DNA from: Sulfurimonas sp.
GTDB lineage: Bacteria > Campylobacterota > Campylobacteria > Campylobacterales > Sulfurimonadaceae
NCBI GenBank assembly: GCA_027063295.1
Contig: JAMORZ010000125.1
Span: 1 to 38,726, forward strand
Reading direction: 5' to 3'
Length of the DNA stretch: 38,726 nucleotides
The position numbers and the translations under genes were made by a program. A model generated the notes under the pieces. The model was not told the origin of the DNA. It was given only the letters and a program-made list of their open reading frames with translations, and did not search any database. This document shows positions 15,379 to 17,548 of the stretch, piece by piece. Positions within the stretch are counted from its first letter, which is position 1, and every line of letters begins with the position of its first letter.

Positions 15379-15472
15379 CTATGATTGTTCTAAAAACTAA
15401 GGTGGTATAACACTTATAAAGTTGTCATTAAAACTGTACAATACAGATAAATTTTATAACAAAGGGGAGCGA

Positions 15473-15655
15473 ATGTGTCTTCTCATAGCTACTGCCATAC
15501 TTTTTGCAGCACTAAACTTCTATGATAAAGGGCTGACTACACAAGCATATATGAGTAGTTTTGTTGCTCTGTTGCTGTATAGTTTTTTCCTCTTTCGAAT
15601 GGTAAAAAACAGAAAATGTATCTTTGGAGATAAAAAAGATTGTAATAAAAGATAA
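15473..15655 (+). CDS. Small hypothetical membrane protein (60 aa)
   Basis: SD AAGGGGAG before ATG at 15473; two hydrophobic stretches and a C-terminal C-x7-C. Confidence 0.6.
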   Translation: MCLLIATAILFAALNFYDKGLTTQAYMSSFVALLLYSFFLFRMVKNRKCIFGDKKDCNKR

Positions 15656-15705: not shown

Positions 15706-15918
15706 ATGCCTGGTATCGTACTACGCCATGATGACAACTTTGATGCAGCTTACAGACGTTTCAAGAAGCAGACTGACCGTAACTTAATCGTTACAGAAGC
15801 TCGTGCTCGCCGTTTCCACGAAACTGAAACTGAAAAGCGTAAAAAATTCAAAATTGCATCTCGTAAGAAAATGCTTAAACGTCTTTATATGATGAGACGT
15901 TACGAATCACGCCTGTAA
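15706..15918 (+). CDS. rpsU: 30S ribosomal protein S21
   Basis: MPGI...[11 protein letters not shown]...YESRL; TATAAT at 15663-15668. Confidence 0.96.
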
Positions 15919-15939: not shown

Positions 15940-16023
15940 ACTCCTAAAATCAAACCTCTACTTTAAGTTTTCTTTTTTCTATCCATTTCTAACAACAGAT
16001 GTCCAAAGCACTCTACAATTCTA

Positions 16024-16053
16024 TTGATTTATGTTCATTTAATATGCTATAAT
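16024..16053 (+). promoter_or_regulatory. Sigma70 promoter for intergenic RNA
   Basis: TTGATT (16024-29) and extended -10 TGCTATAAT (16045-53); no long ORF follows. Confidence 0.7.
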
Positions 16054-16059
16054 TTCATT

Positions 16060-16140
16060 GAAACATTAGAATGCCTCGTGGGTAGCTCCCACATAATGGC
16101 ACTGTAAGGGGTAAGATTTCGGTCTTATCCCTTTTTTTTT
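16060..16140 (+). ncRNA. Candidate ~80-nt sRNA or terminated leader, complementary to the SD/start of the downstream peptide ORF
   Basis: Bounded by promoter and terminator; 16061-75 AAACATTAGAATGCC pairs with GGCATTTCTAATGTTT 16195-16210 (one bulge). Confidence 0.6.
16106..16140 (+). terminator. Rho-independent terminator
   Basis: AAGGGGTAAGAT-TTCG-GTCTTATCCCTT with a T9 run (16132-16140). Confidence 0.85.
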
Positions 16141-16204
16141 GCCTTTTTTTTGGCATTTCGTGGGTAGTGTTGGGTGGGAGTGCTATTGCAAAGGGGCATT
16201 TCTA

Positions 16205-16261
16205 ATGTTTAGGATTATAATCCTATTGCTAATCCTTGGTTATTTTACTAAGTTATTTTAG
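16205..16261 (+). CDS. 18-aa hydrophobic peptide MFRIIILLLILGYFTKLF, Ibs-like candidate type I toxin
   Basis: SD-like AAGGGG at 16191-96, ATG 16205, TAG 16259-61, hairpin just after; size and composition resemble Ibs peptides. Confidence 0.62.
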   Translation: MFRIIILLLILGYFTKLF

Positions 16262-16306
16262 CACATGGAGAGGGTAGCTCCCTCTCTTTGTTACTTCTCG
16301 CCAATT

Positions 16307-17548
16307 CTAAAACTCAATCCCAATTCCAAATAATAACTGATAATCATCCTTAAGAGGTTCAACCCCATTTGCCTCTATCTCTGGTTTTTCAATATGATCC
16401 CATATCCCTGTGATATCAAAGTCCAACCATGATAAAAGTTCATTTTCAAGTGTTGCTATCATGTGATGTTTATAGAGTCCAGACTTTTTGTCTGTAAAGG
16501 TCAAATTGTATTTAAAAGTGATATCACTTACCTTAGATATCTCATACTCAAACCGTGTACTCATCTCAAGTGCAAAAGAGGTAAGTTCATCCTCTTCTCC
16601 ATCAACAACAGATATATACTCGGTATGAATCATCGCTGGACCACCAGAGATATCCCACTCAATCTTTTTTTTATCAATAATAGTATATCCCAAACCTATA
16701 CCCAAAGAGTATTGATTATCAATATTTTGAAACTTATCTTGATAATATTCTGAAAATATTGGTGTCCAGAAAAAATAGCGAGTGATATATACATCATACT
16801 TTTCATTGAGACGGTGATCGTTTGCAGTTTCAACTCCATTGACATTAGATATACGACCTATATAATCAAACAACAACCTTGTTGTTGCTGTATTGCGTTT
16901 TATATTTGCTTTTACATTATAATCAAACTGCTCTTTGTTTCCTTCTCGTATCTCAACACTAATGGTTACTTTACCACTCCAATTATGTTGCTCTTTTTGT
17001 GATGATTTTGCAAGGGATACTATCTGATCTTTATCAAACTCATATGTATGATCCCCTTGAATGATCTCTATCTTTCCATTTCTATAACGTAAAATACCCG
17101 ATATACTTGCAACACCCTCTATATTTACATCAACGATATGATAACTCTTAATCTGCTTGATATCTTGAAAGTTGAAGGTATAGAGTCCTACCTCATCACT
17201 ATCAAACTCCAACTCCTCATCATACATAGCTTTAATCTCACCCTTAAACCACTCACCAGACTTTGTTTGTATCCAGTCATATTGTTTTGGAGTTGGTGAG
17301 AGATCTTCCCATGGTTGCTGCAGCTTTGCAAGATCGACATGACCACCATCATCAACATCTTGTGCCACATCGCTGATGGAGATTTTTGCTCTTGGTGCTT
17401 TTGTGCGATCATCTTTATTTGCTTTTTGGCGAAGCTGTTCTTCACTTAACCCTGACATATCTTCAATAATAACAGGTTCTTTTGAACTCTCTTGCATCTC
17501 TTGTGCCATCAAACCAACAACACACAACAACCAAAAAAGAAGCTTCAT
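16307..17548 (-). CDS. DUF481-type outer-membrane beta-barrel protein
   Basis: Signal peptide, amphipathic strands (YSLGIGLGY), C-terminal GIGIEF. Confidence 0.72.
   Translation of the reverse strand: MKLLFWLLCVVGLMAQEMQESSKEPVIIEDMSGLSEEQLRQKANKDDRTKAPRAKISISDVAQDVDDGGHVDLAKLQQPWEDLSPTPKQYDWIQTKSGEWFKGEIKAMYDEELEFDSDEVGLYTFNFQDIKQIKSYHIVDVNIEGVASISGILRYRNGKIEIIQGDHTYEFDKDQIVSLAKSSQKEQHNWSGKVTISVEIREGNKEQFDYNVKANIKRNTATTRLLFDYIGRISNVNGVETANDHRLNEKYDVYITRYFFWTPIFSEYYQDKFQNIDNQYSLGIGLGYTIIDKKKIEWDISGGPAMIHTEYISVVDGEEDELTSFALEMSTRFEYEISKVSDITFKYNLTFTDKKSGLYKHHMIATLENELLSWLDFDITGIWDHIEKPEIEANGVEPLKDDYQLLFGIGIEF

Follow-up and report, generated by a model that had tools for sequence, protein, structure and literature searches.

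The stretch between rpsU and the DUF481 gene of the window (the whole 38,726 nucleotides of Sulfurimonas DNA that were analysed) harbors a member of a real, unannotated, order-wide RNA-peptide family of Campylobacterota, and this element is likely a type I toxin-antitoxin module that is run from a single promoter. Its parts and the two flanking genes are given here in window coordinates.

16045..16053, forward strand: extended -10 promoter box, TGCTATAAT, with the transcription start predicted at ~16060
16060..16140, forward strand: candidate antitoxin, a predicted terminated short RNA of ~80 nt (from folding, with putative ends)
16061..16077, forward strand: single-stranded tail at the 5' end, with complementarity to SD and start codon (16193-16210)
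16078..16092, forward strand: hairpin 1, whose loop (16083-16087, TAGCT) is predicted to kiss the loop of the 3' hairpin
16095..16103, forward strand: linker, complementary to 16179-16187, 5' of the SD
16106..16140, forward strand: T1, the internal intrinsic terminator, a 12-bp hairpin (16106-16133) with nine T (16132-16140)
16140..16155, forward strand: small optional hairpin 3' of T1 (from folding)
16160..16180, forward strand: G-rich motif, from column counts across homologues
16190..16210, forward strand: SD (AAAGGGG, 16190-16196) plus start region, to which the 5' tail is complementary
16205..16261, forward strand: ORF (ATG to TAG) for an 18-aa hydrophobic peptide, the candidate membrane toxin
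16267..16287, forward strand: 3' hairpin, with loop 16275-16279 (TAGCT) as the predicted kissing target
15706..15918, forward strand: rpsU (ribosomal protein S21, Pfam PF01165), with its own hairpin, outside the module
16307..17548, reverse strand: DUF481 gene (Pfam PF04338), the convergent 3' neighbor, outside the module

The preliminary description of this DNA had named the promoter TGCTATAAT, a transcript whose 5' end is the complement of the SD-to-start region, and a second helix, and each of these is found: the box lies at 16045-16053, 16061-16077 pairs with 16193-16210 in a duplex of -22.4 kcal/mol (predicted), and 16095-16103/16179-16187 forms 9 bp with one G-U (-12.5 kcal/mol with slightly wider segments). 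The hairpin that it placed after the stop codon is likewise present (16267-16287) but is often not a canonical terminator, as at least five T within the 8 bases past the extended stem occur in only 12/76 elements of the family, a count that is too low to the extent that stem extension absorbs some of the T. Because this hairpin so often comes without a T tail, the 3' end of the message is uncertain. The fold of 16055-16300 reaches -91.9 kcal/mol (z = -7.4), and none of 200 shuffled sequences was equally stable. Hairpin 1 with its loop-loop kiss had not been noticed in that description, nor had the multi-copy, order-wide family. In the window copy both loops read TAGCT, with a self-complementary AGCT core, so that the kiss core is 4 bp only; hairpin 1 is melted in the lowest-energy fold, and retaining it costs 2.9 kcal/mol. 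Further upstream, between dnaG and rpsU, a 77-codon ORF on the forward strand (15422-15655) has a hydrophobic stretch and a weak MASE6 match (E 0.012).

Across the family the order of the parts is constant: an extended -10 box, an RNA of 77-103 nt (tail, hairpin 1, linker and T1), the G-rich motif, the SD, the ORF and the 3' hairpin. The unusual same-strand sequence of RNA, terminator and peptide that was first read from the window alone is upheld. Most counts were made on 76 of 80 elements (L124 and three long-peptide elements were left out), with a few automatic hairpin mis-picks (e.g. L054, L129, L141, L144) retained. The -10 box carries its TG extension in 69/76 homologues and fits gnTAnaAT, reported as the -10 motif of this group (PMC3847290). 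T1 has a median stability of -18.7 kcal/mol in the family, and among the 11 sites of the window's genome at which a distinct hairpin (≤-12 kcal/mol) is joined to T8, five are the T1s of the five copies of the module. A hairpin and T tract near-identical to some T1s ends another gene at L043:1393-1429 (oriented) and in L061; this gene is presumably the one for EF-Ts, which is consistent with T1 being an ordinary strong terminator.

The short RNA itself has little conserved sequence. The most sequence-conserved part of the element is the G-rich motif, a result that is partly circular since the motif served as a search anchor. It has no fixed pairing partner, as predictions variously pair it with the ORF or the 3' region or leave it unpaired. 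The motif could be a block to 5' exonucleases or a ribosome standby site. An upstream ORF behind its SD-like GGGA was considered and rejected, as a suitably spaced start codon is found in 14/80 elements only.

The number of promoters bears directly on how the module would work. In a co-oriented two-unit type I system the message would be transcribed from a second promoter close to the G-rich motif, with the upstream RNA as an antitoxin gene in its own right, an arrangement that would suit the very tight appearance of T1. TAGTGT at 16165-16170 of the window does fit TANNNT, and its +1 would fall just before the first target site. At this sole candidate place for a second promoter, however, TANNNT is matched in 29/76 elements only and is absent from whole subfamilies, a near-consensus -10 lies anywhere between T1 and the SD in only 10/76, and in 16/80 elements no more than 22 nt separate T1 from the end of the G motif, a spacer into which the optional hairpin cannot fit either. 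We regard this arrangement as distinctly unlikely. On the opposite strand, an extended -10 was found in 8/76 elements (scanned from 20 nt before the start codon onward), and TA[TC]AAT past the stop codon in 5/80, as opposed to both of two Ibs-like loci of the Helicobacter type. A second or antisense promoter is rejected because neither is conserved across the elements, and both the short RNA and the read-through message would thus come from one promoter.

Assembled RNA contigs of relatives are available from four runs, with a depth of 2-50 on the element versus ~4-27 on parts of the neighboring gene and the promoter region, but these contigs are from other strains and are uninformative on transcription, strand and ends. 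Two of them end at 16100-16102, yet also reach upstream of the promoter, and were given no weight.

Judged by its substitution pattern, the ORF is under coding selection. Among 34 members of the window's subfamily pN/pS is 0.30 in frame, whereas the other five frames give 0.39-2.5 with stops in 17-34 of the 34 sequences, and variability tracks codon position. A pattern that was blind to the ORF returned 85 matches, with an ORF in 71/78 that have the terminator hairpin and in 0/7 that lack it; of the seven hairpin-bearing matches with no ORF, four are decayed copies, two are contig ends and one is an unrelated record. Peptides of the main type have 18-21 aa, with a median GRAVY of 2.1 and a net charge of +1 or +2 in 69/76. 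A second peptide type of 28-32 aa with a charged tail is found in Helicobacter-type and plasmid members on the same RNA chassis. Divergent loci extend this picture: L213 and L168 have other hydrophobic peptides of 26-31 aa behind the same terminator and G motif, L211 is without the G motif, and L165, which lies on a second replicon along with Par-like and IS genes, combines a short leader with a peptide of 24 aa.

The preliminary description called the peptide Ibs-like. The resemblance stands, but Pfam Ibs_toxin (PF13956) has no match in the window's own genome (E≤10) or at the family loci of two carriers, and the module lacks the overlapping antisense gene that ibs/sib has. Profile sensitivity is low for peptides of 18-21 aa. 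BLASTP against one Ibs-like peptide gave no alignment. Five homologous peptides, including 31-aa and 20-21-aa ones, are without a Pfam or NCBIfam match, and a Fst/Ldr peptide signature was accordingly not found in these homologues; an Atlas lead to Fst scores 0.78, under its noise level.

Five loci have decayed in the same direction (L025, L053/L125, L076, L118, L131), with promoter, RNA and T1 kept and the ORF or its start codon lost, and the reverse, an ORF kept and the RNA lost, was not seen among the loci read. As the searches were anchored on terminator and G motif, this one-sided count is biased toward relics that keep the RNA.

The central result concerns three sites at which the short RNA matches downstream sequence: the tail with the SD and start region, the linker with a segment 5' of the SD, and hairpin 1 with the 3' hairpin through a loop-loop kiss. 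These were assessed on 45 later-found elements that are independent of the formation of the hypothesis, and the 31 discovery elements give agreeing results. The kiss averages 5.56 bp in cognate versus 3.2 bp in non-cognate combinations (permutation p = 1e-4), with 5 bp or more in 36/45 cognate pairs against 15.5% of non-cognate ones. The tail/SD duplex amounts to 18.9 kcal/mol when cognate and 7.1 when not, and the linker duplex to 9.3 and 3.6 (p = 1e-4 for each). Since kin are not independent, each element was also compared with its closest relative in disjoint pairs, the relative being identified from a region outside the RNA and the two loops. Cognate combinations beat swapped ones in 33/37 pairs for the kiss (4 ties), 37/38 for the tail (1 tie) and 33/38 for the linker (5 ties), with no losses at any site. 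Loop sequences even exchange sides between lineages (TGATTA/TAATCA versus TAATCA/TGATTA, and TGGTTA/TAACCA versus TAACCA/TGGTTA). In the long-peptide subfamily the contacts are reordered, with an extra site just past the stop codon, and covary as well (16 elements, p = 1e-4 each). The stem covariation that was sought after the first reading of the window is thus present at all three contacts in the 76 elements, and comparative analysis indicates that the contacts are locus-specific, although such covariation is blind to whether the pairing takes place in cis or in trans.

Locus specificity is also seen within one genome. Each RNA of the four complete paralogues in the window's genome binds its own message best; for the window RNA, cofolding with its own message gives -13.9 versus -12.0 and -11.6 kcal/mol, a margin of ~2 kcal/mol only. 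Co-resident par loci are described as not interfering with one another (PMC7472228).

The same contacts may also silence the message from within. The predicted cost of opening the region from the SD to +6 has a median of 13.6 kcal/mol for the full-length RNA, as against 7.5 once the RNA is cut at T1. It is higher by more than 1 kcal/mol in the full-length RNA in 59/76 elements, while truncation brings no clear opening in 17/76, and ~7.5 kcal/mol still has to be paid in the truncated message. In the short RNA, the mean predicted unpaired fraction is 0.67 for the tail and 0.94 for the loop. In several subfamilies (L056, L063, L101), bases past the 3' hairpin can pair with the coding region and may lock the 3' end further, as happens in aapA or hok messages.

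It is conceivable that the pairings act in cis only, within the read-through RNA, with T1 setting a low output, the short RNA as a by-product, and a signal (temperature, a protein, or ribosome standby at the G motif) opening the fold for the synthesis of a small membrane protein, toxic or not. All of the contacts are compatible with cis folding, the full-length RNA folds very stably, and covariation cannot separate the two modes. We nevertheless hold this to be unlikely, as a loop-loop contact 190 nt off, together with an exposed tail and loop, is a trait of trans-recognition in described systems (PMC7472228, PMC5416894), and paralogue-specific sequences are not needed for folding in cis. The RNA, moreover, has almost no conserved sequence that could make up a ligand pocket, and its gene context is random. 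A further alternative retains action in trans and reverses its sign, with the short RNA binding a silent read-through RNA and turning its translation on. The two-isoform layout is the same in IsrK (PMC4825925), but as its complementarity is to the SD and start codon, the short RNA of the module would cover both on binding, making this reading very improbable. Repression in trans by the short RNA, as part of a type I module, remains the preferred interpretation.

The distribution of the family is consistent with this interpretation. The window's genome has five copies, four complete and one cut by a contig end, each with different neighboring genes. The ORF conservation and copy number that were to be checked after the preliminary description turned out as a conserved, coding ORF in a multi-copy element. 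BLAST relatives are found in 53/150 genomes of the same genus. A pattern search of the GTDB collection, using the T run and G-rich motif only, returned 84 loci, mainly under Sulfurimonas titles with some Arcobacteraceae. A profile search across the order matched 20/151 genomes, and the 19 loci read consist of 16 full members, one divergent and two false. In the Helicobacter-like family the profile matched 23/121 genomes (of 16 loci read, 10 are real and 6 false), in the Arcobacter-like family there are matches in 44/130, and in one further family none was found in 60 genomes sampled. The weak profile matches in the H. pylori-like genus fall in the poly-G tract of a fucosyltransferase-like gene or are due to chance. 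Some modules form tandem arrays or clusters, with spacings between a few hundred bases and a few kb (L060/L088, L053; genomes G486, G508, G548), and the highest number of matches in one genome is 8.

Members are also found on mobile elements. A Helicobacter-type member matches 33 plasmid records, all from Campylobacter, of which 31 are conjugative and 19 match over most of the length; these copies are convergent to transfer genes. The plasmids are presumably pCC42-like, and the names used here for the families of relatives are likewise our assumption. On one of the plasmids, NZ_MH634987 (L183:4001-4325), RefSeq annotates a hypothetical protein across the module on the opposite strand, which is probably a shadow ORF, and the real 31-codon ORF is without annotation. 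One viral contig carries a member. Plasmid searches with the window sequence and with L158 gave no real match, and a phage search with L164 gave no match. There is no member on pVir (cjrA/cjpT), on which cjrA is reported to reside (PMC7826846), the best matches there (E 0.03 and 0.007) both being partial. The occurrence of the module is patchy, multi-copy and plasmid-borne, which is a toxin-antitoxin-like distribution. In two metatranscriptome runs contigs are near-identical to 16007-16102, and one of them shows other sequence upstream of 16007; this position may be the left edge of a recently moved unit.

This distribution argues against a 6S-like structural RNA with a housekeeping role and against an element tied to rpsU whose ORF arose by chance. 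The long, rod-like fold and the failure to detect 6S elsewhere in the genome (82% complete) might be cited in favor of such an explanation. The rpsU loci of 29 relatives contain no full-length element, and in four of them rpsU runs into DUF481 within ~100 bases, so that a linkage to rpsU is rejected. In one relative a relic is found behind rpsU, at the same site (L025:1820-1990), with promoter, RNA and T1 intact and the ORF deleted from the G-rich region to the 3' hairpin. The question of a known structural RNA, which the preliminary description had raised, is answered by the scans: the window and 10 homologous loci are without an Rfam match at gathering score, RF00013 included (8 weak matches at E≤10 all lie under their gathering scores), and scans for tRNA/tmRNA and 6S gave no match. 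The 6S gene of this group is reported upstream of purD (PMC3847290). Together with the multi-copy, patchy occurrence and the coding selection on the ORF, these results largely refute the housekeeping explanation, which can hardly be right. The reading of the element as type I-like is, on the other hand, supported by the conserved, coding ORF, by the covarying stems and by the lack of an Rfam or 6S match.

A fuller version of the type I interpretation can be proposed, which we favor on balance. The module would be a one-promoter cassette in which the terminated leader is a par-like antitoxin acting in trans and the read-through RNA is a toxin message that stays self-locked until its 5' domain is cut; the chassis would be modular, accommodating two unrelated-looking peptide types, order-wide, and would probably stabilise conjugative Campylobacter plasmids. 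Most transcripts would stop at T1, yielding an abundant antitoxin of ~80 nt. The few that read through would carry their own antitoxin at the 5' end, folding back over the SD and start codon, a cover that is predicted to silence the full-length message. A cut between T1 and the G-rich motif that takes off the 5' domain would make the ribosome-binding site accessible. With the SD of the read-through RNA locked in cis, activation would depend on this loss, and only the free short RNA would then hold back translation. By analogy with RNA II of par/Fst, the short RNA may first engage the truncated message through the loop-loop kiss at its 3' hairpin, with pairing then spreading to the SD/start and upstream sites. 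Once transcription halts or the DNA is gone, decay of the short RNA would let the peptide be synthesized and act at the membrane. The toxicity of the peptide is suggested by its type, by the tight, multi-layer silencing, by the multi-copy and plasmid spread, and by the five relics that have lost the ORF or its start, of a kind that the searches favor.

If this proposal is true, the terminator fixes the ratio of antitoxin to toxin as in type III systems, with silencing by base-pairing. Searches that expect an opposite-strand RNA would miss the module, as its antitoxin is a same-strand leader; inverted repeats and a covarying kiss around a small ORF are suggested as a search rule for other phyla. 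The proposal would also give a phylum with few described type I families a large, unannotated one, provide natural sets of orthogonal RNA switches, and identify a candidate maintenance system of conjugative Campylobacter plasmids.

A literature search found no description of the module, most subscription papers being outside its coverage. The HRC-4 motif of Arcobacter, described as a three-stem junction with 14 examples in variable context and no function assigned (PMC6429828), could be a fragmentary earlier sighting, a comparison that is based on its description only. The antitoxins of the T1TAdb families are separate RNAs, either overlapping the mRNA or situated to its 5' or 3' side, and in the available part of that source none is described as the terminated leader of the toxin's own transcript (PMC8594479). 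The module is not a member of Ibs/Sib, AapA/IsoA or Fst/RNAII.

With Ibs/Sib and the Ibs-like loci of H. pylori the module shares peptide size (17-21 aa) and make-up, multiple copies and cognate-specific recognition (PMC2943612, PMC2887945, PMC8594479), and by eye the peptides of the 20-aa subfamily (e.g. L160) end like the published H. pylori Ibs-like ones (PMC2887945). Sib, however, is described as a 140-nt RNA from the opposite strand that spans the whole ORF and recognizes ibs in the ORF and start region (PMC2943612). Two Helicobacter-type Ibs-like loci also differ from the module, being without an internal T run (T1) and the G motif and having an antisense -10 past the stop. In published listings H. 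pylori IsoC shares its strand with the Ibs-like ORF that it overlaps, which is either a listing convention or an error (PMC8594479 Table S2, PMC2887945 Fig. S1). AapA/IsoA of Helicobacter and Campylobacter has in common with the module its phylum, a silent mRNA activated by processing (as is proposed here), kissing loops, chromosomal repeats and mobile elements (PMC5416894). AapA and IsoA are nevertheless encoded on opposite strands (PMC5416894, PMC3417511, PMC13584709), IsoA being a fully complementary RNA with its own promoter and activation occurring by 3' trimming (PMC5416894), whereas the complementarity of the module resides in same-strand inverted repeats and the window peptide has 18 aa against 28-32 aa for the AapA toxin.

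Same-strand regulators are also on record. IsrK of Gifsy-1 has one promoter and short and read-through isoforms, of which the short one regulates the long one in trans, but it activates translation and controls an antiterminator (PMC4825925). The P4 CI RNA is a same-strand antisense RNA derived from a leader, but it is cut from that leader and acts through premature termination of replication genes (PMC4825925). As far as that account goes, neither of the two is a stand-alone peptide module. The layout of the type III systems toxIN, abiQ, tenpIN and cptIN is shared: a single promoter, followed first by the antitoxin RNA, then by an intrinsic terminator and a toxin gene that is reached by infrequent read-through (PMC8167048). 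Their RNA consists of tandem repeats that bind an endoribonuclease protein (PMC8167048), whereas the module has no tandem repeats, a hydrophobic product of 18-32 aa and an RNA that is antisense to the message.

The closest resemblance in recognition is to par (Fst-RNA II) of E. faecalis pAD1, where a small antitoxin makes dispersed contacts, namely a loop-loop kiss at the 3' hairpin and two short blocks that mask the SD and start; the sequences are locus-specific there as well, and the toxin is a small membrane peptide, as is predicted for the module (PMC7472228). The 28-32 aa subfamily is like Fst in having a hydrophobic stretch and a charged tail. What par alone has are two convergent promoters, DNA direct repeats that are read both ways, a shared bidirectional terminator and a home in Firmicutes (PMC7472228); its convergent promoters and shared bidirectional terminator were sought in the elements and not found. 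In comparison with par, the module makes do with one promoter and one strand, and builds its contacts from inverted repeats that must co-evolve.
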